Of a DNA stretch of 64,000 nucleotides, positions 12,968 to 32,525 are shown piece by piece. Both the position numbers and the translations under genes were made by a program. The stretch comes from Chloroflexota bacterium (lineage in GTDB: Bacteria; Chloroflexota; Anaerolineae; Promineifilales; Promineifilaceae). The notes under the pieces are model-generated. The model did not search any database. It was not told the origin of the DNA and saw only the letters and a list, made by a program, of their open reading frames with translations. Numbering within the stretch: the stretch's first letter is position 1; every line of letters starts with the position of its first letter. The stretch spans positions 3,130 through 67,129 of the forward strand of contig JAKQCM010000240.1 of assembly GCA_029559155.1 (NCBI GenBank). The letters run 5' to 3'.

Positions 12968-14383
12968 ATGACATCATCCAATCCCTTTTTACAGCTAGAC
13001 CGGCAAATGGTCGGCGACGTGTACACCAGCAGCGAAGTGATGGACAATCTGACCATCCTTTGCGACGAGTTTGGCTCGCGGTTTGGCGGCACGCCCGGCG
13101 AAAAACAGGCCGCCGACTTTATGCAAGCCAAACTAATAGCCTACGGCCTGCAAAATGTTCACCTGGAACCCATCAATTACATTGGCTGGCGGCGGGGCAG
13201 CGTGAAGTTAGAAATTATCGCCCCCATCCAAATGGAGCTTCCGTGCATCAGTCTGCCTCATTCACCAGCCTGCCAATTAGAAGGCACGCTCATCGACATG
13301 GGTGAAGGCGCGCCAGACGATTTTGAAGCCCGCGCCGACGAAATCCGTGGCCGGATCGTCCTGACGACCAGTGAAGCCCGGCCAAAAGGCAGCAAACGTT
13401 GGGTACACCGCATGGAAAAACACGGCCGTGCCATTGTCGCCGGAGCCACCGGTTTCATCTTCATCAATCATTACCCAGGTTTTGGTCCGGCCACTGGAGG
13501 CATTGGCAATGATGGCGAGTCTCTCATCCCCGGCATATCCGTCGCCCTGGAAGATGGCGCCTTTTTGCAGCGCCTGCTCAAACGGCACGGCGAGGTCAAA
13601 ATCCGCCTCACCAGCACCGACGAATGCGCCCCAATGGTTTCCTGGAACGTCGTGGGCGATCTGCCAGGCAATCAAGCGCCGGAGCAAATCATCATGCTCG
13701 GCTGCCATTATGATGGCCACGACATTTCCCAAGGCGCGACCGATCCGGCTTCCGGGACAGCAGCTTTGCTGGAAGCCGCCCGGGTTCTGGCCGCGTATGC
13801 GGCCGGCAAACTACCCTTCACTGTGCGATTTGTCTTATGGGGTGTAGAAGAAATTGGCCTCATTGGATCAACCCAATACGTGCAACAGCACCAGGACGAG
13901 ATGGCGAATATCCGCTTTTATCTGAACATGGACATGGCCGGAAGCCTGCCGAACAAAGGCATTGTGTTGAATAAGTGGCCGTCTCTGGAACCGATTTTTG
14001 CGGGTTGGAGCACAGAAATGGCGCTGCCATTTGGCATCGACCAGTCGATCAACGCCCATTCGGACCATTATCCATTTTTAATGGCGGGCGTGCCGACGGG
14101 CGGCATCGGCAGCGTAGGGGGACCGCCGAGCAGCGGCCGGGGATATGCCCACACGCGCTACGATACGCTGGACAAGACGGAGATCACCAGTTTGCGCGAA
14201 GCGGCTGTGCTGGCGGCGCGATTGGCGCTGCGCATGGCCAACGCGGCTGATTGGCCGGCTCAGCAGCGCAGCCAGGAAACAGTCGCCGATTTACTGGATA
14301 ATCCAGACAATCGTGAAGAATCCGCATTTTTTGCGCGTTTGGATGCCTATTATGCTCAGGCCCGGAAGGAATCGGCAGGCTAA
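12968..14383 (+). CDS. M28-family aminopeptidase with PA domain
   Basis: Zn-ligand contexts HYDGHD, EEIGLIGS, NMDMAG, HSDHYPF. AGGAG sits before the ATG at 12968. The ORF track starts at 12938. Confidence 0.8.
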   Translation: MTSSNPFLQLDRQMVGDVYTSSEVMDNLTILCDEFGSRFGGTPGEKQAADFMQAKLIAYGLQNVHLEPINYIGWRRGSVKLEIIAPIQMELPCISLPHSPACQLEGTLIDMGEGAPDDFEARADEIRGRIVLTTSEARPKGSKRWVHRMEKHGRAIVAGATGFIFINHYPGFGPATGGIGNDGESLIPGISVALEDGAFLQRLLKRHGEVKIRLTSTDECAPMVSWNVVGDLPGNQAPEQIIMLGCHYDGHDISQGATDPASGTAALLEAARVLAAYAAGKLPFTVRFVLWGVEEIGLIGSTQYVQQHQDEMANIRFYLNMDMAGSLPNKGIVLNKWPSLEPIFAGWSTEMALPFGIDQSINAHSDHYPFLMAGVPTGGIGSVGGPPSSGRGYAHTRYDTLDKTEITSLREAAVLAARLALRMANAADWPAQQRSQETVADLLDNPDNREESAFFARLDAYYAQARKESAG

Positions 14384-14485
14384 TTTGCGTCGACGCCGGC
14401 AAAAGAGGCGCACCTGACGGCAAATACATCGCTGGGTTTGCAGATTGGTTCGATCCGAGAGATTGAAGCAATATTACCGGTAAAC

Positions 14486-14529
14486 AAAAAGAGCCTGGCT
14501 GTCTAGGAAAAGTCAGCCAGGCTCTTTTG
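14486..14529. terminator. bidirectional rho-independent terminator
   Basis: 12-bp stem AGAGCCTGGCTG/CAGCCAGGCTCT flanked by AAAAA and TTTT. Lies between the convergent M28 and PspC genes. Confidence 0.8.
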
Positions 14530-14547
14530 CTTGGTGGGGATGGTGGG

Positions 14548-14754
14548 TTAGCGGCGAGGGATGATAATCCAGAGCAGGACGTAGGGCAGGAAACCGGGTA
14601 AACCACCGGGCAGCAGCAAGATCAGGAAGAGCAGGCGAAACCAGAAGGGGCTGATGCCATAAAATTCGCCTAGACCGCCGCAGACGCCGCCCACGATGCC
14701 ATTTTGCCGTCTTAATTTATTTGTTGCTTTCATCGTACTCATTGTTACCTCCAA
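14548..14754 (-). CDS. PspC-domain small membrane protein
   Basis: GIVGGVCGGLGEFYGISPFWFRLLF followed by a hydrophobic segment. 68 aa. Confidence 0.7.
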   Translation of the reverse strand: MEVTMSTMKATNKLRRQNGIVGGVCGGLGEFYGISPFWFRLLFLILLLPGGLPGFLPYVLLWIIIPRR

Positions 14755-14836
14755 ACAGCAGCCAAGCTGCTGTGCATTTGCGTTTTCCAGTTACGGCTAC
14801 CATTACGCAGGTGGGTCACAATGGTTGCGCTAGTGA

Positions 14837-16147
14837 CTAGATGATCTGGCCGCGTTCATTGCGGATGGCTGATACCAAACGCTCCAGGCTTTGATCGCGG
14901 CGTTGTATGTAGCCGACAAGTTCGCGAACCTTAGGGCCTTTGCCCTCACCCGGTAAATAGTCGTATTCTAGGCCTAAATCAAAGCATAGGGTCCGGAGTT
15001 CCTGGTAGTCGAAATAGTCGTTGAGCAGGCGGCGGATCTCGGTGGGACTGATGTTGACGGGGAGGGAAACGGCCGTTTCCGTTTCATCTTCGTCTGCGTT
15101 ATTGGCGTGCTGGCGGATCCATTCGGCAAAAATAGCGCCGTTGACATTCCAATCGTTGAGGCCGGGCACAATGAAGCCCAAAGCGCGCAGTTTGCGCCGC
15201 GCTGCATTGAGGGCTGGAGAATGCGCCCAATCGGGGTGAACGGCCGTACGCAACGCTAGACTGCGCAAATAATCCCGTTCACATTTAGTCAGATCGCGCC
15301 ACCATTGCTCCATGTAGGGAGCCAGCGAGACCAACAGTTGCGGCAGCAAGGCGTTAAACGTCGGGGGCATCCCGTAGAGTTTTGTCTCGTACCATTTGGC
15401 GGCCGTAGCCTGCACAAAAAATGGCAGCGATCCGGCCAAGGCGTGGATGTCGGCCACTTCGTTGTCGACATATAACAAACCGGTTTGCATAGCCGGTTGG
15501 CGAATCAGCAATTCCACTTCGCGCATCTCCAGACCAGGCAAATAAAGCGGTGTTGGATAAAAAATGTTGTAAAAAGGGGAGGTAGGCGGCAGCCCAATCT
15601 GTTCGCCCAACTGCGACAAATTCCAATAGGATGAGGTAATACAGGCCAGTTCATAGTCAAATACGCCGGTCATGGCGCGTAGTTCTGTTAAAAAATCTTC
15701 CGTAAAAGAGCCGGTCCGAATATGGTCAAATTCATCCAGGAGCAATATGATGCGGCGATGGGGATGCTGGCACAAAATGGATTCTACGTCATACAAATTG
15801 GCCTCGCCAGATGGCGACTGCCAGAGGTTAAGTGGTCTCGTACCGCTTAAGACATGGTTTAGTTTGTTTATTAGACGGTGGTAGAAATCGGCAGGCGTTC
15901 TGCAAGAGGACATGTCGATGTAAACCATGATGTAATCACGGGGATTGGGGACATAACGAGCCATGACTTCGCGGTGTGAGACGTATTGGAAAAAAGACGT
16001 TTTGCCCGCGCGGCGCACGCCCAAAACGCTTAAAGATTGCGCCTGAATGCCTCCGACGATTTCAAAGAATCGGGAGACTTGTTCGGTACGGCCGTAAAAA
16101 TCTTCTGGCCGTTTTATCGGATGGCCAACCACATATGTCAGCATCAT
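14837..16147 (-). CDS. P-loop ATPase (Arch_ATPase/AAA_16-like) with C-terminal effector-associated (death-like) domain
   Basis: Walker A GVRRAGKTS (aa 43-51). Walker B IILLLDEFD (aa 133-141). C-terminal aa ~365-432 PTEIRRLLNDYFDYQELRTLCFDLGLEYDYLPGEGKGPKVRELVGYIQRRDQSLERLVSAI matches the EAD pattern. GGGAGG SD 4 nt before the ATG, and 10 nt after the upstream stop. Confidence 0.8.
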   Translation of the reverse strand: MMLTYVVGHPIKRPEDFYGRTEQVSRFFEIVGGIQAQSLSVLGVRRAGKTSFFQYVSHREVMARYVPNPRDYIMVYIDMSSCRTPADFYHRLINKLNHVLSGTRPLNLWQSPSGEANLYDVESILCQHPHRRIILLLDEFDHIRTGSFTEDFLTELRAMTGVFDYELACITSSYWNLSQLGEQIGLPPTSPFYNIFYPTPLYLPGLEMREVELLIRQPAMQTGLLYVDNEVADIHALAGSLPFFVQATAAKWYETKLYGMPPTFNALLPQLLVSLAPYMEQWWRDLTKCERDYLRSLALRTAVHPDWAHSPALNAARRKLRALGFIVPGLNDWNVNGAIFAEWIRQHANNADEDETETAVSLPVNISPTEIRRLLNDYFDYQELRTLCFDLGLEYDYLPGEGKGPKVRELVGYIQRRDQSLERLVSAIRNERGQII

Positions 16148-16157
16148 GCACCCTCCC

Positions 16158-19100
16158 CTAATCTAATAGAGAGCCTAACGGCCGTTTACTAACAATCCAA
16201 CTACGCAGCAAATCAAACGATACAGCATACGCATAATCCTTACTTATTAAAGTTGGCTGCCAGCCGCCCGGACGTGGCAGCCGTGTCTGCATCTCCCTCT
16301 CCACTGCCTGCCGCGTAATCAGCCGGCGTTGCTCCAAACTCTTCAACGCCTGATTCAACACTTCATCCGCAAAATCGACATGGCGCAATCTCTGGGCAAT
16401 CTCTGGGCGTAAAATGGCCTCTTCCCCCAATTCAGCGCTGCCCGACAAAGAAGCCAATACCAACTGCTCTTCTCGCGAACACTCATTCCACAGATGCAGC
16501 AAGTGACTGTCATCCTCTTCCAAAATTCGATCAAATGTCTCCCGCACATCAGCAATGGATATTAATTTGCTGCGATTATTTGTCAAATTCGTCGCACTGA
16601 TCAGCCGGTGGCAAATTAACTGGCTGAAATAAGGATGCCCACGCGCTGCCAACCAGATTCGTTCAACTGCCAAATCGTCGTACTGGATCATGGGAGCAAC
16701 CGGCTCGCGGATCAGGCGTTCAGTCTCGTCTCGCGTTAATGAAACAATCTCACGGCTAATGCCTACATGAAAAATAATACTCCAATAATCTTCCACCAAC
16801 TGGTTTGTGCCTACCAGAATAAAGGTGACTCGGGTACGATGCTGCATGAGCGAGCGCAAATAGGACAAAATGTCCTGGCTGAGTTGGCCTCGCTCAATGC
16901 TTACTTGCAACTGCTCCAATTCATCCATGATCAATACCAGCAGGCCATTTTCCGGCAATTTGTCCTCTACTTTGTCCAAATAGTCGTCAAAATCACGGAA
17001 AAGCGTCCCATTGATAGACCAGGAAGCGGGAGGACTCACTTCAATGCCTCGGCGGTGCAGGTTGCGGGAAATGTCATGGCTTAAGCGATCAAAAAACTCC
17101 GCCGTCTCGCAGCCCGCCAATCGTTGTAAATCGATGTACACAGGATAGATGGGGTAACCGGGATATTCTCGTATGTTTTTACCTCGATGACCGCCCACCA
17201 ATTGATATAGTGTCGAAGTTTTACCCATTCGCCGCTGGCCGTACAAGATCAGTGTGTGTGGCTGTGTTTTACCAATCAGGTTCTCTTCGATCCAGCGGAA
17301 GACATCTTCTCGCCCGACATAAAGGGATTCGGAAGCGGCCGTTAGCGGCTTACCGACAACATAAGGGTTATCGACATGGAAGGAGCTGCGCGCCAGCGAA
17401 TCAAACTGAACTTCTGATTCTAAAATTTGCTGATATTCATGGCCGCGAACATCGTAATATGTCGCCCGAATCATGATGCGTGCCTCTTTTTCCCTGGGAT
17501 GCAGCCAGATAGTCAGCGGAACGCTTTGGGCTGGGTTCACTGCGCCAATTTGGATAACGGCTGAATCTTTTTCAGCCTCATAAGCTGGCGAGGGTAGTAT
17601 GTCTAAGGTCAGATTTTCGATGATATCGGCATACTGTGGGTTGGTTAGCAATCCTACAATTTGGGCGCGCCCCCGGCTGACAACGATATGATCGCGGTCT
17701 AGTTGAAAATCCAAAATGGTGGGCATGTCCCGTTCGTCTGCGGTAATTTCACCTAATTCATAGAGGATCATGCGCGTGGTAGTCGAAATTTGGCGATTGG
17801 TAAAGGTACGAAGTCGTTCGATTTCGGCGCGGGAAACAAGGACGTTTTCACGTTCGGGTGATAATTTTTGCGCGAACCAGTCATATTCTTCTTTGGTAAG
17901 TGGGTGCCGGGGCAAAAATTCGATCTTGAAGACGTGAAATTCGTAATCTTTGAAGATGTAGTCGCGCTGCGAAAACTGCCGCTGGTGCAGGGGCTTGTAT
18001 TCCCAAACGATACGATAATCGCGAGGACTTTGCAGGCCAAGTTCTTCCAGCAACTTGCGCTGGATGGTTCTGGCGAATGAGTCTTTATCGCCCTGATTCT
18101 GGTCCATTCGGCCGCCAACCAGGTTGAACATGTCCCAATTGGCATTCCACTGTAGCAAATAGCGTCGGTCCTCTCCGCTGCCAATGGTGATCAGGGCGAA
18201 GGCGCTACGTGCGCGTAATGTGTTGAGAATGCGGCTTACTTCTAACGGCCGTTCAATGCCCCGCACCGCATGTTTCCCCGCTACCAAACCAGAACATAAA
18301 GCCAATCTTTTGGCCCAGGGATACCAGGGCGCGTTTTCTAATTCTTCAAACTTCAAAGCTGCCATGCTTTGGAAGAAAACCGCTACCGGATAATGATAGC
18401 GGAAACGCTCCGGACTGTGCGTCTTGGCCATCTGTCGCAGCGAAAACAAGAAATAAAACAGGTTTTCTGAATATAACGGGAATTGCGTATACAACGTGTC
18501 GTACCATATCGGACGATAATCGCGTAAATCGCTAATAAAATCGGCAAAATCCCCTTCAGCCTGCCAGAGTACGTCTTCCAATAACAAGGCAAATTTGAAC
18601 GCTGTGTCCGAATCCCACAACCCCTCGTCGATCATTGATTTATAGAGACGATATAAGACATGCGTCCGAAATTCCACTTCCAATTTTGCCAGATCGTAAT
18701 AGATATGACCGGGGCGGGCATCGGAAAAATCGATCAGCCAGACGGCGACGCCGGTGTCGCCGGCTTCGACCAACACGTTTGTGGTATTGAGATCGCCGTG
18801 TACGACCGGTGAAATCTGAGGAATAGGCACGATCATATCTTCGCGGCCAATCTCCCAAAGCAGGCAGCGGATATTGGTGACGGGTGAAATGAACTGCCCA
18901 GACCCCAGATCATAGCTGTCTGATTCCAGGTTGTACGGCCGTTCCGTAATCCGGGCGATATGCTGCGCCAAAATCGTCTCCTGCGACGCCACAACGCGAC
19001 CACGAACGCAAATCCGCTTACCCCGCCGAATCAACGGATGCGCCAGTATGTCCCATTCCGATTCAGAAAATGCAACCTTAAAACGCAAAATCGGGTGATC

Positions 19101-20360
19101 CTTACTCCTCAAAAGCGGCAGCGCCGGATACATGGCCAACAAATCGTCGTGCAAATAGATAACCCCATGAGCGGTATCCAATTCAGCCACCTCAAACCCG
19201 CATAATTTCACCCACGGCTCCTCTCCATGCCGCAGCGCCTGGCTAACTGCTTGCAATTTCACATTTCCCGGCACCGAAGATAACGTGGTCAGCTCTTCCG
19301 CCGAAAGTATAATATCGCTCTCGTTGTCATCATCCTGCTCCACCAAAACAGCATCAGCCAGAGTCAGATGGGGCGGCAAAACACGTGAATACAATGGCGC
19401 CCAATAACGTAGCTCGCTATCGCTGCTGCCAATATAAAGTTGTTCCAGGCTCATCCGAAGCTCTTCCAACAGAGCATCAATCAACTCTTTGCGCAGTCGA
19501 TTCTGGTCTTGTAAAAATTGAGTCAATGTAATCGCATCCCGTCTGGACCCTGCCAGAGCATAACAAGCTCCAGCTAGATGCTGACCCCGCACCATTTTCC
19601 CCTGTATCTGACCAACACGCTGATTCAATCGCGGCTGAATTAAAGTATCTTGTTTCTCCTGAATCATCTCCAGGCGGTCAGCCGCATCGATCTTTAGGAT
19701 ACGCCGCAGCTCATTTGTTGGTTTCACCCGATAAATGCGCGAGCCACTAAACCCCTCATCCATGCGAAAAATCTGGACAACGTCACTGGTCGCAAACAAA
19801 CGTTTGATGATATAGCGTTCTTCGGGATTGTCATTCAACGCCATCAGATCAGAGTTGCTCAAACCTGGTTCAATGCGCGGCTTAACCAGATCGCTGGCGT
19901 AACGATCAAAAATATCTGGCCAAACAACCGGGGAAAAAACGTGTTTATGAATTTGCTCGTTCAGCCGTTCTAATTTTGCCGACTGCTTGGTAAAATGCCA
20001 GGCTGCGCCCTCGCGCATCAGGTAACGAACGCGATCATCCAGAGCGCTGGTAAAAACGACAACCGGCAGCTTCGGTCGAATTTCCCGAACCTGGGTAATA
20101 AACATGGTGATTTCCGGCAACAGATCGTAATCTGCGTCCACAAAAATTAGATCGATATCTTCGTCCTGGTTTATGATGCGCAGCGCCTTTTCAAATGACC
20201 CAGCAATGAAAAAGCGAAATTCGTTTGTGTGACACAAGACAGTTCTGGGAAATTGGTCAGCCTGGATAGAAGTTCCCGGCTGAGTAAAATGTCCCCCAAC
20301 ACACAATGTTTTTAACTTCACAAACCCGTTCAAACTATGTGTGGGCGTTTCTGAAGGCAT
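16158..20360 (-). CDS. 1400-aa multidomain protein: pseudo-receiver, protein-kinase-like/APH-like, Nudix-like, beta-rich linker, P-loop ATPase, winged-helix C-terminus
   Basis: Single uninterrupted ORF. ATG with GAGGAG SD. Domain motifs are listed in the sub-features below. Confidence 0.9.
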   Translation of the reverse strand: MPSETPTHSLNGFVKLKTLCVGGHFTQPGTSIQADQFPRTVLCHTNEFRFFIAGSFEKALRIINQDEDIDLIFVDADYDLLPEITMFITQVREIRPKLPVVVFTSALDDRVRYLMREGAAWHFTKQSAKLERLNEQIHKHVFSPVVWPDIFDRYASDLVKPRIEPGLSNSDLMALNDNPEERYIIKRLFATSDVVQIFRMDEGFSGSRIYRVKPTNELRRILKIDAADRLEMIQEKQDTLIQPRLNQRVGQIQGKMVRGQHLAGACYALAGSRRDAITLTQFLQDQNRLRKELIDALLEELRMSLEQLYIGSSDSELRYWAPLYSRVLPPHLTLADAVLVEQDDDNESDIILSAEELTTLSSVPGNVKLQAVSQALRHGEEPWVKLCGFEVAELDTAHGVIYLHDDLLAMYPALPLLRSKDHPILRFKVAFSESEWDILAHPLIRRGKRICVRGRVVASQETILAQHIARITERPYNLESDSYDLGSGQFISPVTNIRCLLWEIGREDMIVPIPQISPVVHGDLNTTNVLVEAGDTGVAVWLIDFSDARPGHIYYDLAKLEVEFRTHVLYRLYKSMIDEGLWDSDTAFKFALLLEDVLWQAEGDFADFISDLRDYRPIWYDTLYTQFPLYSENLFYFLFSLRQMAKTHSPERFRYHYPVAVFFQSMAALKFEELENAPWYPWAKRLALCSGLVAGKHAVRGIERPLEVSRILNTLRARSAFALITIGSGEDRRYLLQWNANWDMFNLVGGRMDQNQGDKDSFARTIQRKLLEELGLQSPRDYRIVWEYKPLHQRQFSQRDYIFKDYEFHVFKIEFLPRHPLTKEEYDWFAQKLSPERENVLVSRAEIERLRTFTNRQISTTTRMILYELGEITADERDMPTILDFQLDRDHIVVSRGRAQIVGLLTNPQYADIIENLTLDILPSPAYEAEKDSAVIQIGAVNPAQSVPLTIWLHPREKEARIMIRATYYDVRGHEYQQILESEVQFDSLARSSFHVDNPYVVGKPLTAASESLYVGREDVFRWIEENLIGKTQPHTLILYGQRRMGKTSTLYQLVGGHRGKNIREYPGYPIYPVYIDLQRLAGCETAEFFDRLSHDISRNLHRRGIEVSPPASWSINGTLFRDFDDYLDKVEDKLPENGLLVLIMDELEQLQVSIERGQLSQDILSYLRSLMQHRTRVTFILVGTNQLVEDYWSIIFHVGISREIVSLTRDETERLIREPVAPMIQYDDLAVERIWLAARGHPYFSQLICHRLISATNLTNNRSKLISIADVRETFDRILEEDDSHLLHLWNECSREEQLVLASLSGSAELGEEAILRPEIAQRLRHVDFADEVLNQALKSLEQRRLITRQAVEREMQTRLPRPGGWQPTLISKDYAYAVSFDLLRSWIVSKRPLGSLLD
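16611..17378 (-). other. P-loop NTPase domain (Arch_ATPase/AAA_16-like)
   Basis: NPYVVGKPL...YVGRE lead-in. Walker A GQRRMGKTS (K1047). Walker B LLVLIMDELE (aa 1140-1149). Followed by a helical, winged-helix-like tail. Confidence 0.75.
17745..18209 (-). other. Nudix-like domain, variant Nudix box
   Basis: aa ~718-872. GGRMDQNQGDKDSFARTIQRKLLEELGL. The REUXEEXGU position reads R768-K769-L-L-E772-E773-L-G-L (E to K). Roughly half the positions are identical by eye to the standalone Nudix at 20556-21185. Confidence 0.7.
18261..19823 (-). other. protein-kinase-like (APH/ChoK-type) domain with a large insert
   Basis: Gly-rich loop EGFSGSRIYRV. Candidate Lys K223 (RILKID). Catalytic loop VHGDLNTTNVLV (aa 520-531). 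Metal-binding IDFSDA (D544). Confidence 0.65.
19956..20228 (-). other. receiver-like (CheY-fold) domain lacking the acidic Mg-binding pair
   Basis: aa ~45-135. DLIFVD (D75), VVVFT (T104) and HFTKQ (K125) are in receiver-like spacing. The beta1 end reads FFIAGS instead of xxDD. Confidence 0.55.
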
Positions 20361-20390
20361 GGTTGCTCCTCAATTTTGGCCGATTATGCA

Positions 20391-20420
20391 ATTTTATTTA
20401 CTACAATTTAATATTTTCAA
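20391..20420 (-). promoter_or_regulatory. promoter candidate for the 1400-aa gene
   Basis: On the minus strand: TTGAAA (20420-20415), 18-nt spacer, TAAAAT (20396-20391). Lies within a 195-bp AT-rich spacer. Confidence 0.3.
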
Positions 20421-20555
20421 ATTCCTAACATAACGTATCCACATTATGCACGAATATGCGAAGGGGAGGAACTGCGCTTTATAGGATTTTTGTACTAGGC
20501 ACGGCCGTTTCAGGCAAAACACGCAGCATCAATCAGGCAAAACCATGCTTTCAGA

Positions 20556-21185
20556 CTAACAATGAGCGCCATCCAAACAAATCGAATCGTTAAAAGGAAC
20601 AGGCGTCAACTCATCCAAGGCATTCAAGATATACCGCGTTGTCATCGAAATAGGACGATCGTCACAAGTGCGTAACCGGCAAATCTCATCAACGGACACA
20701 TAGATATTCTCTCTGCCAGTAGACAGCCAACGGGCGAAGGTATTTAGCCGGTGACGATCTAGTGCCAACTCCGGAAATAGCTCCACGGCAAAAATGCTAA
20801 AATGATAATTCTTAAAATGGTTGGTACGCTGGGAGTACTGGCGCAAATAAATCTGCTTCAACTCTTTGACGATAAAAAAATCACGCGGGCTGCTTAAGCC
20901 CATCTCCTCTTCAATTTCCCGACAAATGGTCCGTCGAAATGAATTTTGGTCTCCACACGCATTGTCCACTTTACCACCAATCAGATTAAACGCCCCCCAC
21001 TGGTGATTCCATTGCAGCAAATACCTTCTGCTGCTCCCTTCTCCGGCAATAATTCGAGCCAGGGCGCTTTTTTCTACAATTGGCTCAATGGCAGATGGGA
21101 AATAATTCATTTCAAAACAACTTGCTAGTAAATTTGTATGGAAAGCCTGTTGACGCACTTCATGATAGCCTAAAACATACGCCAT
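20556..21185 (-). CDS. standalone Nudix-fold protein, paralogue of the Nudix module in the 1400-aa protein
   Basis: 209 aa. Canonical second half of the Nudix box R89-E-I-E-E93-E94-M-G-L. RRYLLQWN..W..FNLIGG is shared with the fused copy. Confidence 0.8.
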   Translation of the reverse strand: MAYVLGYHEVRQQAFHTNLLASCFEMNYFPSAIEPIVEKSALARIIAGEGSSRRYLLQWNHQWGAFNLIGGKVDNACGDQNSFRRTICREIEEEMGLSSPRDFFIVKELKQIYLRQYSQRTNHFKNYHFSIFAVELFPELALDRHRLNTFARWLSTGRENIYVSVDEICRLRTCDDRPISMTTRYILNALDELTPVPFNDSICLDGAHC

Positions 21186-21238
21186 GAGTATTGTACTTTG
21201 GTCATTTTGCCCTTCGTTTGTCGTCTTTGGGAGAATTT

Positions 21239-22387
21239 TTAGCGCGGATGAAGGAGCGCTTGATAGAGGGAAAGCAGCTCTTGAGCCGCTTTTTGCCAGG
21301 AAAATTGACGTGCGCGACGGTACCCGGCAGCTACCAACTGCGCCCGCCAGGCCGGATCGGCGACCAAATTTTGCAGCGTGGTGGTCCAGGCATTCTGATC
21401 GTGAGGAGAAAGCTGCACGGCCGTTTCCCCCACCACTTCTGGCAGCGATGAACTATACGACGTCACCACCGGCACGCCGCACTGCATCGCCTCCAATAAG
21501 GGCAGCCCAAATCCCTCGTACAAACTTGGAAATAAAAACAAAGTCGCCCGACTGTACAGCGCCGGTAAATCCGCGTCGGCCACAAAACCTAAAAAGCGCA
21601 CACGGCCGTTTAAGCCCTGCCGCTCAATTTCCGCCAACATGTCGTCGTATAACCAACCTTTACCGCCGGCGATATACAAATTGTGCGGGTAAACAGCCGC
21701 CACCGGCGCAAATGCCCGGATAAGCATCTGATAATTTTTGCGCGGCTGCACGGTTCCCACCGACAAAAAATATGGCGTGTCATCCAGGTGGTAGCGGTTG
21801 GCAACGGCCGTTAATATCTCCGGTTCCGTGACCGGCCGAAACTGCTGGTTGACCCCGCTGTACAAGACCGTGATTTTATCCGCCGGGACTTGCCAGGCGG
21901 CCACCAAATCATCGCGCGTCGCGGCTGAATCGGCCAAAACATGCGTCGCCCGCCGAATCGACCACGGGACGACCCGATTCAAATACGCCACCAACACGGA
22001 CGGGTAAACCTCCGGGTAATGAACAAACGACAAATCATGAACGGTCAGAAGGGTGGGAATGCCTTTGGCAACCGGCGGCAGCACAAAATCCGGCGAATGA
22101 AACAAATCGAGCGGCCCGGTGGCCCACTGCACCGGCGCAGGAACCCGCAGGCGATACCACAGCCGATACAACCATGCTTCTGTCAACGGCGCGGCATGAA
22201 AATGAATGTGCTCACCAGATAGCAGCGGATCGGGCACGGCCGTTTGCCCCACCTGTTTGGCGGCAAATAAATGGTAATCGAAACGGCCGTCCAGCGCCGT
22301 CAGCGCCCGCACCAATTCCCGCGTATACCGGCCAATCCCGCCGCCCTGCGTCAGCGCCGAAGTCACATCAATGCCAATGCGCATCAA
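21239..22387 (-). CDS. GT4-family glycosyltransferase
   Basis: C-terminal [19 protein letters not shown] (EX7E region). 382 aa. Confidence 0.85.
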
Positions 22388-22851
22388 TCCACGTCACTAT
22401 AGGTCCAAAAACGATTGACGAAAAAATTCCAGAACAACACCACAACCGTGGCCAACATCTTCGCCGGAATGTAACCCGGCAGCGCCAAAACGCCCATCCC
22501 CGCCAGCAGCGAATCAAATACCGGCTCCATCAACACCAAAATTAAATTATTGATCACCAGTCCGATGATGCTGACCACGGCAAACTGGCCCATTTGCGAC
22601 ATCAAACTCTTGGAGCGCGAATCCGGGTAAGTCCAATACCGGTTAAGCGTGAAATTGCTAATCACGGCCGCGGTAAAGGAGATCGTATTGGCAACCACTG
22701 TCGCCAGCCCGGTGGTTTCTTTGAGCAATGTCAGCGTGCCAAAATCGACCACAAAACCAATCGTGCCGACGATTAAAAACTTGAAAAAGCGTTCGGCTTC
22801 TTTAGGATTGATGCCAAAGCTGCCAGCCACACGCACAAAAATCGCAATCAT
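22384..22851 (-). CDS. GtrA-family membrane protein
   Basis: FFKFLIVGTIGFVVDFG and four hydrophobic segments. ATG at 22851 is preferred; the ORF track uses TTG at 22893, inside the repeat element. 4-bp overlap with the GT4 gene. Confidence 0.75.
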   Translation of the reverse strand: MIAIFVRVAGSFGINPKEAERFFKFLIVGTIGFVVDFGTLTLLKETTGLATVVANTISFTAAVISNFTLNRYWTYPDSRSKSLMSQMGQFAVVSIIGLVINNLILVLMEPVFDSLLAGMGVLALPGYIPAKMLATVVVLFWNFFVNRFWTYSDVD

Positions 22852-22886
22852 GAATTTGCTAAACCTCACCGTAAAAAGAATGTAAC

Positions 22887-22933
22887 CAGACAAACCCCAA
22901 AGGTTTGCTTCCGAAAATTTGGGGTCTGTATGG
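22887..22933. repeat. REP/MITE-like element, truncated copy B
   Basis: CAGACAAACCCCAAAGGTTTG ... AAATTTGGGGTCTGTATGG. Shares TTGGGGTCTGTATG with copy C. Confidence 0.55.
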
Positions 22934-22936
22934 ATT

Positions 22937-24490
22937 TCAAGGCTTCGGCTGTGATGGAGTGGCCAAACGGCCGTCTGCTTTTTGCTTCAGCAACGCCAGC
23001 AGCCCTAACATCACGCCTAAATGAATGTAAATATTATTTACATAAAGTTTATCAACCAGGTGATGAACCGCCAAAGCAGCCCAACATGCCATCAGCCCCA
23101 AAACAATTCCCCGTTCGGCCCCATCCAACCGGGCCAAAAGCCGCCAGGTCTGCCAGACAATCACGCTCCACAGCAGCAAATAAGCCAGCAGCCCAATAAC
23201 CCCCACCTCAGCCAACAAGTTGAGGTAGTAATTGTGCGCGTGGCCCAGAGGATCAGGCCAGTTGATGAGCGCATAAGCCGCATAAGTCGGCTCGTAGTTG
23301 CCAAAGCCCACTCCCCACCAAAGTTGATCGCGGGCCATGCCCAACGCCGCCTGCCAATGGGCCAATCGCTCCAAAACGGCATAATTCGCGTCGTTGATAT
23401 CGGCGCCGCGCACATCGCCGAATTGCAAATCCGCGCCAAAACTTACCAACCGATCAGTGACGCCGGCCGGGATCAGATTAGCCTGCAAGCCAATGATGAA
23501 GAATAACGCGCCAACTACCAGCATGGCGACGCCCCATCGCCGCTGGCGCGGCCAAAAAAACAGCAGCACGGCCGTTCCCGCAACAAACCCCAACCACGCC
23601 CCACGGCTCCACGAAAATACCAGCGCCAACCCCGTCAACAAAGCAACGCCGCCTACCAACAGCAGCGGCGCCCAAACGGACACGGCCGTTAACGAAAAAC
23701 CTGGCTCCCGTTCCCGCCAGCGCCGCCACAAAACCGCTATCAGGCCCAAAACGATGCCTGCCGCCAGCAGCACAGACAAATTGATGAACCCGCCAAAGGG
23801 GTTTGGCTGCTCGAATGTGCCCGACGCGCGATAAAACCGGCCTAAAACAAGAAAATGCTCCGGTCCATCACCGCGCAGGCCAAACTGCCAGATGCCAATC
23901 GCTGCCTGCACTACACCGGAAAAAAGCAGCAGCCCAACCACAAGCCAGGGGAAGAAACGGCCGTTTCTCCCCACCTCCTGGCCTTCCTCCTGGTCCATTT
24001 CCTGGCCAAAATCCACCACCAGCAGGGCCAACAAGCCAATTTCCACCCACTTCATCAGCTCGCGCAAACCGACAGTCACCGAAGGCGCATCCACCACGGT
24101 TGCGGCCATCACCAGCAAAAAAAGGCCCAACGGCGCCGTAAGAAACGTATGGGGCAGCACCAGCCGCCGCCGCGACAAGCCACGCGCCAACCAGACGGCC
24201 AACGTCAGCAGCAGCAGTGCCTGGCCGCTGTCCAGCCCCCAGCCAAACAGCACGCTTTCCAGCGCGCCAAACGGCCCCAACAGAAGCATCAGACACAGCC
24301 CTACGAGCGGTTGGATAAAAGTTAGAAGGATAACGGCCGTTCCCCCCACCAATGCCGCGCCCCACAGCAAAGGCAGCCGTGCCAGCAACACACCCGCCGC
24401 CACTGCCAGCGCGCCAAATAATACTGGCTGGCGCAGCACGGCCGTGGTCCGCCAGCCGGGTTGCCATTTTTGGGGGATTAACGCATTCAT
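22937..24490 (-). CDS. O-antigen ligase/polymerase-like (Wzy_C) polytopic membrane protein
   Basis: 517 aa, at least 10 hydrophobic segments. Large loop with WSRGAWLG-type motif. Confidence 0.75.
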   Translation of the reverse strand: MNALIPQKWQPGWRTTAVLRQPVLFGALAVAAGVLLARLPLLWGAALVGGTAVILLTFIQPLVGLCLMLLLGPFGALESVLFGWGLDSGQALLLLTLAVWLARGLSRRRLVLPHTFLTAPLGLFLLVMAATVVDAPSVTVGLRELMKWVEIGLLALLVVDFGQEMDQEEGQEVGRNGRFFPWLVVGLLLFSGVVQAAIGIWQFGLRGDGPEHFLVLGRFYRASGTFEQPNPFGGFINLSVLLAAGIVLGLIAVLWRRWREREPGFSLTAVSVWAPLLLVGGVALLTGLALVFSWSRGAWLGFVAGTAVLLFFWPRQRRWGVAMLVVGALFFIIGLQANLIPAGVTDRLVSFGADLQFGDVRGADINDANYAVLERLAHWQAALGMARDQLWWGVGFGNYEPTYAAYALINWPDPLGHAHNYYLNLLAEVGVIGLLAYLLLWSVIVWQTWRLLARLDGAERGIVLGLMACWAALAVHHLVDKLYVNNIYIHLGVMLGLLALLKQKADGRLATPSQPKP

Positions 24491-24556
24491 GGGAGAAAAG
24501 GGTAGAGAGAATCGGCCGTTGGTTTTAAAGCGCCAACGGCCGTTTGCCTGTTAAAC

Positions 24557-25501
24557 TTAAACGCGATTTTGGAAATACGCCACAGTTTCCCGCAGCCCTT
24601 CCATCAAATCAACTTTTGGCTCCCAGTCCAACACCCGCCGCGCCTTTGTAATGTCTGGCTGCCGCAATTTGGGGTCATCGGTAAACCGATCATCCTTCGG
24701 ATTTACAAACAAAATGTCCGATCGGCTGCCCGAAACTTCAATCACCGCTTTGGCAAAATCCAGAATGGTCATCTCGCTCGGGTTCCCAATATTCACCGGC
24801 AGAGATTCGGCCGAAAACAGCAGGCGGTAGATGCCTTCCACCAGATCGGTGTAATACTGGAAGGAACGTGTCTGACGGCCGTCGCCGTACACCGTCAACG
24901 GCTTATTGGTGAGCGCCTGGTAAATGAAGTTGGGCACGACACGGCCGTCGTTCAACCGCATCCGTGGGCCATAGGTGTTAAAGATGCGCACAATGCGCGT
25001 TTCCAGGCCATGATACCGCTGATAAGCCAGCACCATCGCCTCTGAAAACCGCTTTGCCTCGTCGTAAACGCCACGCGGACCAATCGGGTTTACATTCCCC
25101 CAATACGTCTCAGGCTGCGGATTCACCTGCGGATCACCGTACACTTCGGAAGTAGAGGCCAGCAGATACCGTGCTTCCTTCACTTTGGCCAGACCTAACG
25201 TATTGTGGGTGCCCAAAGAGCCTACTTTCAACGTCGGAATCGGGTGCGTCAGATAATCATTCGGGCTGGCCGGAGAGGCAAAATGCAGCACCGCATCCAA
25301 TGGGCCTGGCACATAGATGTGATTGCTCACATCATGTTTAATAAACGAAAAACGTTCATTCCCAAACAGATGGGCAATGTTATCCATATTGCCCGTAATT
25401 AAATTATCCATACCCACAACTGTATGGCCTTCTTTGATAAACCGATCAGAAAGATGCGAACCTAGAAACCCGGCCGCGCCTGTAATTAAAACACGCATCA
25501 T
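24557..25501 (-). CDS. UDP-glucuronate decarboxylase-type SDR (UXS)
   Basis: GAAGFLGSH Rossmann motif. YDEAKR catalytic YxxxK. MDNLITG. GGAGG SD directly upstream of the ATG at 25501. The ORF track starts at 25540. Confidence 0.85.
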
Positions 25502-25651
25502 ACCTCCTATTGTTTGGTCAGATGCAAAAACACCCGACAAGTTATTTTAACCTAGCAATATATCTGCGACGAATCACGACCGGTAATCGTGGGGCAAACG
25601 GTCAACTCGCCATTCAATAAAGCTCGTTGTATACTCTAACAAGCTCACCAA

Positions 25652-26755
25652 ATGGAGTGTTTCATGCACAACACCAATGATAAACGGCCGTCCACTAGCA
25701 AAGCACCATCACCTAACATCCCATCTAACGACAGCCACGAAAGCCGCAAAGCCGACCACATTCGCATCAATTTAGAAGAAGACGTCACGTTCAACAAACT
25801 GACCTCCGGCCTAGAAAAATACTTCTTTCTCCACCAGGCGCTGCCTGAAATCGATCTGGCCGAAGTGAATACCCACACACAGGTTTTCGGCAAAACGCTC
25901 TCCACGCCGCTCCTCATTTCCTCGATGACCGGCGGCACAGCCGAAGCGCGGCAAATCAACCGCACGCTGGCCGCCGCTGCCCAAGAAGTTGGCATCGCCA
26001 TGGGCCTTGGCTCACAGCGCGCCGCCATCGAAGACAACACCCTGGCAGGCACATACCGCGTACGCGATGTCGCCCCGGATATTCTTTTGTTCGCTAACCT
26101 CGGCGCTGTGCAGCTAAATTATGGTTATGGCCTGGACCACTGCCGCCGCGCCGTCGATATGATCGAAGCCGACGCCCTGATTTTGCATTTCAATGCCCTG
26201 CAGGAAGCGGTGCAGCCAGAGGGCGACGGCAATTTTGCCGGTTTGCTAACCAAGGTAGAAGCCATTTGCCGCGCCCTGCCGGTTCCCGTCATCGCCAAGG
26301 AGGTCGGTTGGGGGTTTGCTGAAAACACCGCCCGCCAGCTGGTTTCTGCCGGGGTTGCGGCTATTGATGTGGCCGGAGCCGGAGGCACATCCTGGAGCCA
26401 GGTGGAAATGTACCGCGCGCCAACGGCGCGGCTTGCCAGGGTTGCCGGCGCATTTATTGATTGGGGCATCCCCACGGCCGTTTCTCTGCAATACTGCCGC
26501 GCCGCCGCCCCTAACCTGCCAGTTTTCGCCAGCGGCGGCATCCGTAACGGCATTGATGTGGCCAAATGCATTGCTTTAGGCGCGAATCTGGTCGGGTTTG
26601 CCGGCGAATTCCTGCGCGCAGCCGACAAAGGCGGCGTCGAAGGCGTAGTGGAATTGGCCGGCGCCATCACCGACGAGCTGCGCGTAACCATGTTTTGCAG
26701 CGGCGCAGGCGACCTGCCTACGCTCGCCCAGACCCCGCTGCGCCGCGAATTTTAA
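25652..26755 (+). CDS. fni: type 2 isopentenyl-diphosphate delta-isomerase (FMN-dependent)
   Basis: [22 protein letters not shown] motifs. ATG at 25664 has the better SD. Confidence 0.9.
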
Positions 26756-26813
26756 AGAGGCCGGCCCACTTCCGACCTGATATCTCCCATATGTCACCAA
26801 ACGGAAATAACGC

Positions 26814-27839
26814 ATGACCAACGAGCTACAAACAATATCACAAACCATGTTGGCCGCCCTGAACGACGAAATGCGGTCTGTTCTTCAAGCCAACAACACG
26901 ATGCCGGATACCTTTCACGGCATGATCCACTACCACATGGGCTGGGTGGACGAATCTTTTCAACCTGTCAATGTGCACCCTGGGAAGCAGATACGGCCGT
27001 TACTCTGCTTGCTCACGTGCCAGGCGGCCGGCGGCGATTGGCGGCAAGCCTTACCTGCCGCCGCCGCCATCGAAATCCTGCACAATTTCTCGCTGGTCCA
27101 CGATGATATCGAGGACGCCAGCCCCACTCGACGCGGCCGCCAGACCATGTGGCAAATTTGGGGCATCGAACAAGCCATCAATACCGGCGACGCCATGTTT
27201 GCCTTCGCCCACCTGGCCATGAACCGACTGATAGAACGAGGCGTGGCTGCCCCCATCGTCGTGCAGGCGCTGCGCCGTTTCGACGAAACCTGCGTGCGTT
27301 TAACCCAAGGCCAGCACGCCGATATGGATTTCGAGAAGCGTATAGAAGTTAGCGTAGCTGAATATATGGCGATGATTGAAGGGAAAACGGCCGTGCTCGT
27401 TTCGCTCAGCACAGAATTAGGCGCACGAATCGCCGGCGCAAACGAAGACACAGTAGCCCACTACACGCAGTTTGGCCTCGATCTCGGCCTGGCCTTCCAG
27501 GTGAAAGACGATATCCTCGGCATTTGGGGCGACGAATCACTCACCGGCAAATCGGCCGCCACAGACATCATCACCAAAAAGAAAACGCTCCCGGTCCTTT
27601 ACGGCCTGGAGCAAAGCGAAGCCCTGCGGCAGCTCTACCGGCAACCGGCCGCCAACGATACATTCGTCCGCGAGGCCATCCAAATCCTGGATGCCTGTGG
27701 GGCGCGCACCTTTACCCAAAATCGGGCCAGCGCATATTCCGAAGGCGCAGTTGATCACCTGCAAGCGGCTCATCCAAGTGGCAGTGCCGCTGTCGCCCTG
27801 CAAACACTCACAGAAATGCTGCTGCAGCGCAACGCATAA
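26814..27839 (+). CDS. polyprenyl (geranylgeranyl-type) diphosphate synthase
   Basis: First Asp-rich motif LVHDDIED. Second KDDILG. Confidence 0.9.
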   Translation: MTNELQTISQTMLAALNDEMRSVLQANNTMPDTFHGMIHYHMGWVDESFQPVNVHPGKQIRPLLCLLTCQAAGGDWRQALPAAAAIEILHNFSLVHDDIEDASPTRRGRQTMWQIWGIEQAINTGDAMFAFAHLAMNRLIERGVAAPIVVQALRRFDETCVRLTQGQHADMDFEKRIEVSVAEYMAMIEGKTAVLVSLSTELGARIAGANEDTVAHYTQFGLDLGLAFQVKDDILGIWGDESLTGKSAATDIITKKKTLPVLYGLEQSEALRQLYRQPAANDTFVREAIQILDACGARTFTQNRASAYSEGAVDHLQAAHPSGSAAVALQTLTEMLLQRNA

Positions 27840-27966
27840 TTTCCATCTCGCAGCTCGGTCTGATCAGTTTTCAACAAAACAACCAGGCATTGTCCTGTCA
27901 TTCTGAGCGAAGTCTTCAGAGCAAAGAATCCCTATAACCTGATTATTCCAAACAAGCCTAAAAACC

Positions 27967-27999
27967 AAAAGGGCGATTCGTCATGAATCGCCCTTTTTT
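27967..27999. terminator. bidirectional rho-independent terminator
   Basis: GGGCGATTC-GTCAT-GAATCGCCC flanked by AAAA and TTTTTT. Lies between the convergent polyprenyl synthase and rpoC genes. Confidence 0.85.
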
Positions 28000-28024
28000 G
28001 TGTTCCGTCAGCTTAGTTTTACAA

Positions 28025-31000: not shown

Positions 31001-32362
31001 GTCCGGCGCGCCCAACTCCAACAAGCGCTTCAGGCGGTTGTTACGGTTGATGACGCGACGATACAAATCATTCAGGTCCGAAGTAGCAAAACGGCCGCCG
31101 TCCAACTGCACCATCGGGCGCAAATCTGGCGGAATAACCGGCAAAACGGTCAATATCATCCACTCTGGGCGGTTGCCGCTCTGGCGCAGGGCTTCCACAA
31201 CCTGCAACCGGCGCGTGGCGCGTTTTGCGGCTTGCTTGGAGCGCGTGGTACGCACTTCTCGCCACAGATCGCGTGACAATTTGTCCAAATCCATGCGCCG
31301 CAAAATTTCGTACAACGCTTCAGCGCCCATATCGGCCTTAAAAACATTGCCAAATTTGCTCTTTAGCTCACGGTATTCGGTCTCGTTCAAAAATTGCATT
31401 TGCGCCAGGCTTTCCAACTGTTCGCGGTTAGACTGGTACTGCTGCCGCAAGCGAGATTGCTTCATGCCGATGAAGTCTCGTTTTTCTTGTCCGACAGCCT
31501 GGGTTTCAGAACGCAGCTCAGCAATTTCTTTCTGCAAGGCAGCCACTTGTGACTGATGATCTTCTTCATGTTCGTGCTGCACGCGGGTCAGGCGGTCAGT
31601 CGTGATTTCTTGCACCAAAACTGCATGTTCGCGGCCAATGGACTGCCCTTTCTGGACAATGATTTCTCCATCCAGAATAATGTCTTCAGTGGCCGGATTT
31701 TTCTTCATGTTTTCCAGCCGCTGTTCCATCATTTTGGCTTCACGCACTACTTCATCCGTGATCTCAGCCAAACGATCATCAAATGTCGCGTTCAGTTCTG
31801 CTAATTGGCCTTCCAATTCTTCAAGACGAGCGGTGACGTCCAGCGTAGCATCGGCAACTTCGCCTTGCATTTCTTTTTCCAGACGCAGTTCAGCTTCTTC
31901 CAGTTCGTCGTCAAGACGTTTAAGGGCGCGCTGACGTGCTTCCTCATCGACATTGGTTGTAACATATTGCGCAAAATAGAGAACACGATCCAAATTTCGG
32001 CGGGAAACGTTTAAAAGTAAGCCCATGTGGCTGGGGACGCGGCGTGTGTACCAAACGTGCGCTACGGGAGCTGCGAGTTCAATATGCCCAAGGCGTTCGC
32101 GTCTGACCGAGGAGCGGGTAATTTCTACTCCGCATTTGTCACAAACAATACCCTTGTATCGGATATTTTTATATTTGCCGCAGTAACACTGCCAATCCCG
32201 TGTTGGGCCAAAGATGGCCTCACAAAACAGACCATCTTTTTCCGGCCGTAAGCGGCGGTAGTTGATGGTTTCAGGCTTGGTGACTTCACCGTAAGACCAA
32301 GACCTAATTTGTTCGGGGGATGCTAGACTGATTTTCAGCGAGCGGAATTCTGTTGTATCCAC
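28025..32362 (-). CDS. rpoC: DNA-directed RNA polymerase subunit beta-prime
   Basis: [29 protein letters not shown] and other universal beta-prime blocks. Likely GTG start at 32362, 7 nt after GGGAGG. The ORF track uses TTG at 32377. Confidence 0.97.
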
Positions 32363-32525
32363 CAGGTGACCTCCCAAAAGATTTGAAGCTCCGACCCAAT
32401 ATTCACGTTTATCAAGTGACGCTAAGCGTCGGGGGGACTAAAGTGCATAAACACATAAAAGAGCGTATGGCAGTTACGCCAACGCCCTTTGAGTAACCTA
32501 GAACACTTTATAACATAACCAATTT

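Follow-up and report, generated by a model that had tools for sequence, protein, structure and literature searches.

Why should a large multidomain protein be encoded between free-standing copies of two of its own modules, and do the free and fused copies work together? This question is raised by three consecutive genes, here called A, B and C, in a 64,000-nucleotide stretch of DNA from a Chloroflexota bacterium (family Promineifilaceae; GenBank assembly GCA_029559155.1, contig JAKQCM010000240.1, positions 3,130 to 67,129 of the forward strand), which we refer to as the window. A first-pass annotation of the sequence had proposed that gene A resembles a Nudix module within B, that gene C resembles the C-terminal ATPase of B, and that an active Nudix in A and a degenerate one in B represent an enzyme/sensor pair. 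We find that A and the Nudix module of B are ancient duplicates that have been inherited together. In addition, we propose, with what we judge to be about an even chance of being right, that A, B and C constitute a chromosomally fixed signalling module dependent on nucleoside triphosphates (NTPs) and built on STAND NTPases, of a type predicted to serve in biological conflict or programmed cell death. All three genes lie on the minus strand in the order A-B-C, and the features that bear on the Nudix relationship are as follows (coordinates are those of the window; aa, amino acids).

20556-21185, minus strand: gene A, a free-standing divergent Nudix protein of 209 aa
20604-21071, minus strand: Nudix module of A (aa 39-194)
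20895-20921, minus strand: Nudix-box core of A, REIEEEMGL (aa 89-97)
16158-20360, minus strand: gene B, a multidomain protein of 1400 aa
17742-18209, minus strand: fused Nudix module of B (aa 718-873), paralogue of A
18033-18059, minus strand: Nudix-box core of B, RKLLEELGL (aa 768-776), where Lys (K769) replaces Glu
14837-16147, minus strand: gene C, a STAND NTPase with an EAD7 domain, 436 aa

The similarity between A and B is extensive. Residues 39-194 of A align with residues 718-873 of B without gaps, and 80 of the 156 positions are identical (51%; BLASTP E=7e-48). All of the shared blocks quoted in the first-pass annotation (RRYLLQWN, FNL[IV]GG, SPRD, RQ[YF]SQR, FK[ND]Y, REN[IV]xVS and RLRT) are present. 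The range to which that annotation was attached, 17745-21185, comprises A and the part of B that extends through the end of the Nudix module, and both C and the ATPase of B lie outside of it, within 14837-17372.

To place the duplication in time, we built a neighbour-joining tree from the 231 distinct Nudix modules, of which 93 are free and 138 fused, found among the gathered proteins and loci. Free and fused modules form two separate clades with no misplaced sequence and a bootstrap value of 186/200 (93%). When the tree is rooted on the free clade, the earliest splits among the fused modules involve the most divergent lineages of B, and the point of attachment of the free clade is close to the base of the fused modules. 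This arrangement indicates that the duplication is about as old as the B family itself, with the caveat that the basal branches are short. Among the 15 loci that carry both genes, pairwise distances for A and for the Nudix module of B are strongly correlated (r=0.83, Mantel p=2e-4), and the mean p-distance is 0.47 for A versus 0.24 for the fused module, meaning that A evolves about twice as fast. Furthermore, the distance from A to B is the same within a locus (0.512) as between loci (0.516), showing that gene conversion has not occurred. Given the separate clades and the equal distances, the possibilities that A is a recent duplicate of the B module or has been homogenised with it are ruled out. 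Outside of the Nudix box, several residues (QWN, W, N, GG, D, QxS, YxF and E) are invariant in both the A and B families, arguing that both bind the same kind of ligand in the same pocket.

The two families differ in the constraint on the Nudix box. Relative to the consensus GX5EX7REUXEEXGU, the RE-x2-EE-x-G-U core of A is canonical, although the upstream E is replaced by N, and alignment of the A family with PDB sequences reveals that the N-terminal half of the box is four residues longer, through an insertion, than in Nudix proteins of solved structure. The corresponding RK-x2-EE segment of B in this window departs from the catalytic core consensus because K769 stands where the first Glu of the core would be, just as the first-pass annotation had read it. 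Across the free family, the R, E, E, E and G residues of the box (R-E-x-x-E-E-x-G) are invariant in 93 of 93 distinct sequences. The 138 fused modules instead divide into 91 with RE, 39 with RK and eight with NE, such that the first Glu position is E in 99/138 and K in 39/138, and the preceding R is changed to N in eight. Lys is the sole substitute for this Glu and is carried by three or more separate clades, a pattern suggestive of a selected charge reversal, arising in parallel, rather than of random decay. Catalytic constraint is thus clearly relaxed in the fused Nudix and strict in the free Nudix.

However, the predicted pairing of one active Nudix with one degenerate copy finds no support as a general rule. 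Most fused modules retain RE (91/138), and the state of the box is unrelated to the presence of A: loci with A include 10 with RE and five with RK, whereas those lacking A include 27 with RE, 12 with RK and four with NE (Fisher p=1). We therefore rejected a compensatory role of K769 for the presence of A, and likewise a correlation between the two. What stands is the relaxed box of the fused copy, and the sequences suggest that a pattern of one active and one dead Nudix is a property of the sub-lineage in this window rather than of the whole system. Moreover, of about 55 loci, only about 15 have A next to B, and thus B works without A in most lineages.

Gene A itself is a highly divergent member of the Nudix superfamily. 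Its match to the Pfam NUDIX model (PF00293; E=8e-4, 19.8 bits) falls just under the cut-off of 21.1 bits, and a precomputed match to the same model is present in most A homologues. An AlphaFold2 (AF2) model with a predicted local distance difference test (pLDDT) score of 82 has the alpha/beta/alpha Nudix fold, except that the N-terminal ~35 aa, which are missing from many orthologues, are modelled with low confidence. Foldseek aligned this model to NrtR, MutT1, Ap4A hydrolase and RppH with a probability of 1.0, although the template modelling (TM) score was only about 0.45. At this level of similarity the substrate class of A is not inferable by Foldseek, since the neighbours span enzymes acting on ADP-ribose (ADPR), Ap4A, RNA caps, NTPs and nucleoside diphosphate (NDP)-sugars. 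A search of PDB sequences with the A-family profile yielded only Nudix-box matches (best E about 0.09), and neither NCBIfam nor PHROGs produced a match for A or C. The 86 homologues of A are nearly all 170-240 aa long and come from Chloroflexota wherever the source is named. When it occurs as a plain free gene, A is seated between a GT4 glycosyltransferase gene and B. Among three free-A homologues traced on contigs, two occupy this position, and the third is a Nudix-PAS fusion located elsewhere with no B nearby.

The other domains of B, together with those of C, provide the basis for assigning the locus to a class of signalling systems. From the N terminus, B contains a REC-like domain, a TCAD9 domain, the Nudix module, a beta-sandwich and a STAND NTPase.

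19956-20225, minus strand: REC-like domain of B (aa ~46-135), a weak Response_reg match
18558-19766, minus strand: TCAD9 domain of B (aa 199-601), APH/Kdo/RIO-like kinase fold
17397-17711, minus strand: all-beta sandwich of B (aa ~884-988), immunoglobulin (Ig)/macroglobulin (MG)-like linker
16161-17372, minus strand: STAND-type NTPase with helical and winged-helix regions of B (aa ~997-1400), paralogue of C
15113-16147, minus strand: nSTAND1/2-type NTPase of C (aa 1-345)
14852-15037, minus strand: EAD7 adaptor of C (aa 371-432), identified with Pfam

The first-pass annotation had described B as a receiver and kinase joined to an A-like and a C-like module. The kinase-like, A-like and C-like parts are borne out, and a beta-sandwich must be added between the Nudix module and the ATPase. 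The receiver is less certain, as it remains below the Pfam threshold: the isolated segment matches Response_reg with E=9.5e-4, under the cut-off, and PDB profiles of the Sln1 receiver and response regulators with E=0.02. In a family alignment of 17 B sequences with identities down to 40%, residues D70, D77 and K125 of this domain are invariant. However, the expected phospho-acceptor D75 is less than 90% conserved and the acidic pair that should follow strand 1 is missing, such that the domain is probably a pseudo-receiver. The TCAD9 match is strong (E=8e-20, 71.8 bits versus a cut-off of 40), and a match to APH (E=5e-7, 30.2 bits versus a cut-off of 23.2) covering the catalytic loop is embedded in it; NCBIfam gave only marginal APH and Kdo-kinase matches. 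The motifs G203-x-S205-G206-S207, K223, H521-G-D523-L-N525-x-x-N528 and I543-D544-F545 are invariant in the same alignment, and this kinase-like domain thus has intact active-site motifs.

Pfam places the fused Nudix at aa 722-829 with a score of 23.6 bits, above the 21.1-bit cut-off. An AF2 model of aa 141-1000 (pLDDT 77) contains a Nudix fold, aligned by Foldseek with a probability of 1.0 to many solved Nudix proteins, followed by the sandwich. The latter consists only of strands in the model (pLDDT about 80-89) and has no Pfam match, and its Foldseek matches include MG domains of complement C3, TRAP-beta and an Ig-like domain of lacto-N-biosidase. In the C-terminal region, ATPase_2/AAA_22 is found at aa 1015-1188. 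These two families are matched in 16-17 of the 17 members, whereas nSTAND1 is matched in 3/17 and nSTAND2 in 0/17. The Walker A (GQRRMGKT) and Walker B (hhhhDE) motifs are conserved.

As had been claimed, homologous free genes are present on either side of B, and the second of these relationships joins C to the C-terminal ATPase. BLASTP aligns aa 5-246 of C with aa 1000-1247 of B at 28% identity (E=6e-9), and comparison of the C family with a profile of the B ATPase by hhalign gives a probability of 99.6% (E=1.9e-23) over 306 columns. Because this match spans the NTPase, helical and winged-helix regions, it reflects a specific paralogy beyond the generic likeness of P-loop proteins. The distances of C and of the B ATPase are correlated across loci (r=0.85, Mantel p=2e-4), and these NTPase modules too are ancient duplicates. 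Phylogeny had been suggested as a check on co-evolution between free and fused copies, and the correlations support it for both pairs. C retains Walker A (GxRRxGKT) and Walker B (LLLDEF) motifs. In loci with paired B and C genes, Walker A is intact in both partners in 14/14 cases and Walker B (DE) in 13/14, the exception being DN in C of locus L040. Relatives of C match nSTAND2 (with E-values down to 7e-20) and nSTAND1, and one orthologue is named 'nSTAND1 domain-containing NTPase' in UniRef. The EAD7 domain of C is well supported (E=2.4e-17, 62.9 bits versus a cut-off of 32), and nSTAND2 or nSTAND1 together with EAD7 occurs in most C relatives among the 120 of 240 matches listed.

A variant of C was observed in a metagenome-assembled genome (MAG) from Ardenticatenaceae (L028:14313-15989). 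This orthologue of 559 aa lacks EAD7 and ends in a different domain of ~200 aa with a D...E-x-K-like motif (DILI...IAECK). Neither Pfam nor the PDB yields a match for this domain, and its sole PHROG match, to a family annotated as RusA-like resolvase, is weak (E=0.005). The domain could be a direct nuclease effector that replaces the adaptor. The 568-aa protein P0453 may be the same variant.

Relatives beyond these loci place the A/B-type Nudix in similar company. A search of 1.84 billion representative sequences with the free-family profile returned 390 matches, including 31 at E<=1e-30 and 176 at E<=1e-10. Multidomain relatives (P0259, P0311, P0222, P0334, P0325, P0326, P0324, P0235 and P0287) include fusions of Nudix with TCAD9 in both domain orders (Nudix+TCAD9, Nudix+TCAD9+TPR-S and Pkinase+REC-like+TCAD9+Nudix). 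Members of the same Nudix clade are also fused to TIR+STAND, DUF4062+NACHT, sigma-54 AAA+, nucleoside-phosphorylase-like and PAS modules. That Nudix and TCAD9 are joined in several unrelated architectures suggests that they constitute a recurrent functional unit, and its fusion partners indicate that this dyad keeps company with immune-type modules.

Homologues of B fall into 115 protein clusters, nearly all of about 1400 aa with identities of 40-100%, and all derive from Chloroflexota. Their hosts within Anaerolineae are Ardenticatenaceae, Promineifilaceae, Ca. Leptovillus and Ca. Leptofilum. We located 54 B loci among 185,579 species-representative genomes, and the figure of about 15 loci with A out of about 55 given above refers to such genomes. 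C follows B in about 40 loci, and the clade whose B proteins are 40% identical carries a longer C-like variant without EAD7. Loci with 98% identity were found in MAGs designated Candidatus Leptovillus affinis or 'Chloroflexota bacterium', and a 9.8-kb metagenome contig from JGI carries an identical A-B-C set; the host is therefore a filamentous Chloroflexi of the Anaerolineae type. A free Nudix gene and the N-terminal ~870 aa of a B protein with 68% identity to that of the window were also seen on a 3.5-kb contig labelled Mangrovibacterium sp. (L050, JBNKTK010000198.1). Since all other B loci are from Chloroflexota, this contig probably represents contamination of a Bacteroidota MAG during binning.

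Upstream of A lies a set of genes with functions related to envelope glycans, all identified with Pfam.

21239-22387, minus strand: GT4 glycosyltransferase, directly upstream of A
22384-22893, minus strand: GtrA-like protein
22937-24490, minus strand: Wzy_C/O-antigen-ligase-like protein
24557-25540, minus strand: NAD-dependent sugar epimerase/dehydratase

Based on the coordinates of the open reading frames (ORFs), the spacers are 53 bp between GT4 and A, 195 bp between A and B, and 10 bp between B and C, where the start of C follows the stop of B. GT4 and GtrA overlap by 4 bp, with the GT4 start codon lying over the GtrA stop codon. The order rpoC - polyprenyl synthase - FMN-dependent dehydrogenase - epimerase - Wzy_C - GtrA - GT4 - [A] - B - [C] is found in the window (14837-32377) and in loci L002 and L071, and is maintained even where identity between the B proteins is as low as 67-74%. 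A GT4 gene is upstream of B in nearly every locus with B at least 50% identical. The divergence of B equals that of GT4 (median 67% identity each), and B evolves more slowly than Wzy, GtrA, C and A. We considered and rejected the possibility that this GT4 is a dedicated 'conflict' effector: its score against the GT4-conflict model is far under its generic Glycos_transf_1 score, it overlaps GtrA by the 4 bp noted above, and unrelated GT4 genes in the fetched loci also match the GT4-conflict model.

Several other features of the neighbourhood were recorded. The G+C content is 0.49-0.50 over A, B and GT4 (16001-22000) versus 0.54-0.59 in most flanking 2-kb bins. The A-B spacer contains a sigma-70-like site, TTGAAA-18-TAAAAT (10/12; 20391-20420, minus strand), ~30 nucleotides upstream of the B start codon. 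In the scan for promoters and terminators, site counts were not above shuffled expectation, and this site, the one promoter-like sequence in the spacer, is a weak lead only. An Rfam scan of 14000-22500 gave no match. Directly 3' of C is a 61-aa PspC-domain ORF (window ~14548-14733, minus strand), called on the matching metagenome contig (L001 8288-8473) and not conserved at this place in the other loci inspected. An M28 peptidase gene is located downstream of A-B-C on the opposite strand. In several Ardenticatenaceae loci (L002 15800-18457, L072 13968-16104), C is followed by genes for a Bflower-like protein, a 4HBT thioesterase and a MoxR-like AAA protein (faint bpMoxR), a set that is absent from the window. 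Farther away, the window encodes a MalT-type STAND regulator (AAA_16 + TPR_MalT + LuxR HTH; 52973-55624, minus strand) and a TPR-rich protein of 1930 aa with a weak ANTAR match (39175-44967, minus strand), for neither of which was a link to A-B-C found.

The domain families of B and C stem from the catalogue of NTP-dependent conflict systems compiled by the Aravind laboratory. The closest described arrangement is the nSTAND2 two-gene operon, a mobile system whose two gene products, both nSTAND2 NTPases, are predicted to assemble into a toroidal hetero-multimer (Kaur, Iyer, Burroughs, Aravind 2021, eLife 10:e70394; PMC8195603, section 15, Fig. 6C), and in which one partner is inactive and fused to a GT4 or HEPN domain (PMC8195603). 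B and C resemble this system in being adjacent same-strand genes with homologous STAND NTPase modules, in the matches of C and its orthologues to nSTAND2/nSTAND1 models, in the association with GT4, and in the presence of an effector or adaptor module on one partner. There are also clear differences. Both B and C keep Walker A and B motifs, whereas one described partner is eroded, and the NTPase of B has no match to nSTAND2 (0/17). GT4 is here a separate upstream gene in a glycan operon rather than a fusion, and C appends EAD7 instead of a GT4 or HEPN effector. B additionally has a large head composed of REC-like, TCAD9 and Nudix domains. Finally, the A-B-C locus is vertical rather than mobile, with divergence that matches that of the flanking genes across about 55 genomes.

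A second comparison is with the vWA-MoxR-VMAP conflict systems, with which TCAD9 and EAD7 are associated according to a figure legend in a 2023 paper (PMC10910872). EADs, among which EAD7 appears, are treated as effector-recruiting adaptors (Kaur et al. 2020, eLife 9:e52696; PMC7159879), and the same work lists Nudix among domains that may act on ADP-ribose (ADPr) or NAD+ in conflict systems. The term TCAD was not found in its main text or in one supplementary file. TCAD9 in B, EAD7 in C and the presence of Nudix are shared with these systems, as is a filamentous, 'multicellular' bacterial host. However, the core NTPases of B and C are of the STAND type and not MoxR, and the cognate EAD partner that is typically adjacent in EAD-coupled systems is not found near C. 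No vWA, MoxR or VMAP gene was present among the Pfam-scanned ORFs of A-B-C and its flanks or among the called genes of the matching 9.8-kb contig. A MoxR-like AAA gene with faint matches is found about 2.5 kb downstream in L002 only.

Among Nudix proteins, NrtR, AraR and CFIm25 are Foldseek neighbours of the A and B modules in which the fold serves as a binding module with a degenerate box. Identity to these proteins is only 12-16% with TM scores of about 0.4-0.5; they are transcription or RNA-processing factors, and about two thirds of the fused B boxes are canonical. With MutT, RppH, Ap4A hydrolase and ADPRase, A shares the fold and the REx2EE core, but it is very divergent, scores below the gathering threshold and carries the four-residue box insertion.

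We propose that B and C would form a hetero-oligomeric NTP-dependent switch, as has been predicted for nSTAND2 operons. The TCAD9 and Nudix head of B would bind or process a ligand derived from a nucleotide, for which an ADP-ribose/NAD-derived or NDP-linked compound is the most plausible candidate, and in doing so gate assembly of the switch, while EAD7 of C would recruit an effector encoded elsewhere in the genome. The fused Nudix would be mainly a binder for which hydrolysis is dispensable, a role for which the non-catalytic sensors NrtR, AraR and CFIm25 offer a possible precedent, and the K769 residue found here probably abolishes hydrolysis. The free A protein would act in trans as an optional hydrolase of the same ligand, setting the threshold for activation or resetting the switch, rather than as an obligatory partner subunit.

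A number of points weigh against this proposal. The 'conflict' label of the domain families is itself a computational prediction. B behaves as a core gene with vertical inheritance and fixed synteny, and its position beside an envelope-glycan operon is unusual for domain families described as mobile conflict systems. Pfam and PADLOC revealed no mark of a mobile element or defence island in the window, and PADLOC returned no significant match, only two marginal ones (LmuC, 0.009, and PDC-S27, 0.001). A hidden Markov model of the EAD7 region detected C alone in the 64-kb window, and the +/-10 kb flanks of related loci contained no further EAD7 gene. C is missing from the clade in which B is 50-57% identical. 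Foldseek listed no kinase among the top 50 matches to the B segment, and the structural neighbours of A are generic Nudix enzymes that do not indicate a single ligand. Lastly, the effect of the E-to-K change at K769 is our assumption from the role of the equivalent Glu in MutT mutagenesis.

The main rival explanation, which draws on the tight synteny and the core-gene behaviour, is that the locus is a housekeeping regulator of envelope glycans. The targets of B (and A) would be NDP-sugars or polyprenyl-phosphate-linked intermediates in the neighbouring epimerase-Wzy-GtrA-GT4 pathway, with TCAD9 as a sugar or lipid kinase, Nudix as an NDP-sugar hydrolase or sensor, and the STAND pair as a switch for envelope synthesis in filaments with no role in conflict. 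The GT4 gene that immediately precedes B on the same strand in nearly every locus with B at least 50% identical, the placement of A exactly between the two, and same-strand gaps short enough to be compatible with one long operon all fit this explanation. So do vertical inheritance at a housekeeping-like rate, the small-molecule kinases (APH and Kdo kinase) that are the nearest general families of TCAD9, and the presence of GDP-mannose hydrolase and UDP-X diphosphatase among the structural neighbours. However, glycan genes are missing from the deepest B-C clade (40% identity), which nonetheless keeps B and a C-like partner, and EAD7, TCAD9 and nSTAND otherwise occur in predicted conflict systems. 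The same Nudix clade is fused elsewhere to TIR, NACHT and TPR-S modules, and one C orthologue has exchanged EAD7 for a different, possibly nuclease-like, C-terminal domain. On balance, we consider a housekeeping glycan role to be unlikely.

The obligate enzyme/pseudoenzyme pair anticipated by the first-pass annotation is quite improbable in our estimation. Here A would dock on the degenerate Nudix of B through an interface like that of a Nudix dimer, with A catalysing and B sensing or regulating, while C docks on the ATPase of B. Many Nudix enzymes are homodimers, which counts in favour of such docking. Ancient paralogy, co-location and co-inheritance would be expected of partners, a canonical A does accompany an RK box in B in the window and in closely related loci (B identity of at least 84%), and the constraint on the box is strict in free copies and relaxed in fused ones; the B-C part, moreover, overlaps with the signalling module that we favour. 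Nevertheless, about 70% of B loci have no A, RK or NE boxes occur without A at 16 loci and RE boxes with A at 10 (Fisher p=1), and A and B from the same locus are no more alike than those from different loci. The twofold faster evolution of A relative to the B Nudix is likewise not what a tight obligate interface predicts. As for a recent tandem duplication, gene conversion or assembly artefact devoid of functional meaning, only the adjacency of similar sequences speaks for it. The 49% amino-acid divergence between A and the B Nudix, their separate clades (bootstrap 93%), the equality of same-locus and cross-locus distances, and the recurrence of the arrangement in independent assemblies and metagenomes leave it practically no chance.

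A more specific version of the favoured signalling module can be imagined, which we offer as rather speculative and think improbable in its full detail. The locus would be a self-contained small-molecule circuit that employs a single fold in two roles: the fused, catalytically relaxed Nudix reads a nucleotide-derived signal, possibly made or modified by the adjacent intact TCAD9, the always-canonical free A erases it, and the hetero-oligomer of two STAND proteins controls an effector recruited by EAD7. Such a circuit would represent a cell-death or differentiation switch domesticated in the core genome of filamentous Chloroflexi, next to the envelope-glycan genes, rather than a mobile defence. 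Two aspects of the locus appear not to have been described previously, namely an ancient pair of free and fused Nudix proteins with contrasting catalytic constraint, and the core-genome fixation of a paired-STAND/EAD-type locus beside a glycan operon.

STAND/NLR-like NTPases and their adaptors in multicellular bacteria are proposed forerunners of the cell-death and immune machinery of eukaryotes, and almost none have been tested. The A-B-C locus offers an unusually tractable example, being a conserved, single-copy set of three genes. Its two anciently split Nudix forms, one strictly catalytic and the other relaxed, present a contrast by which the ligand could be identified and its binding told apart from its hydrolysis, and the recurrent Nudix-TCAD9 dyad points to a shared nucleotide chemistry. 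The core-genome behaviour of the locus beside a glycan operon also calls into question whether every 'conflict-system' family is concerned with conflict.

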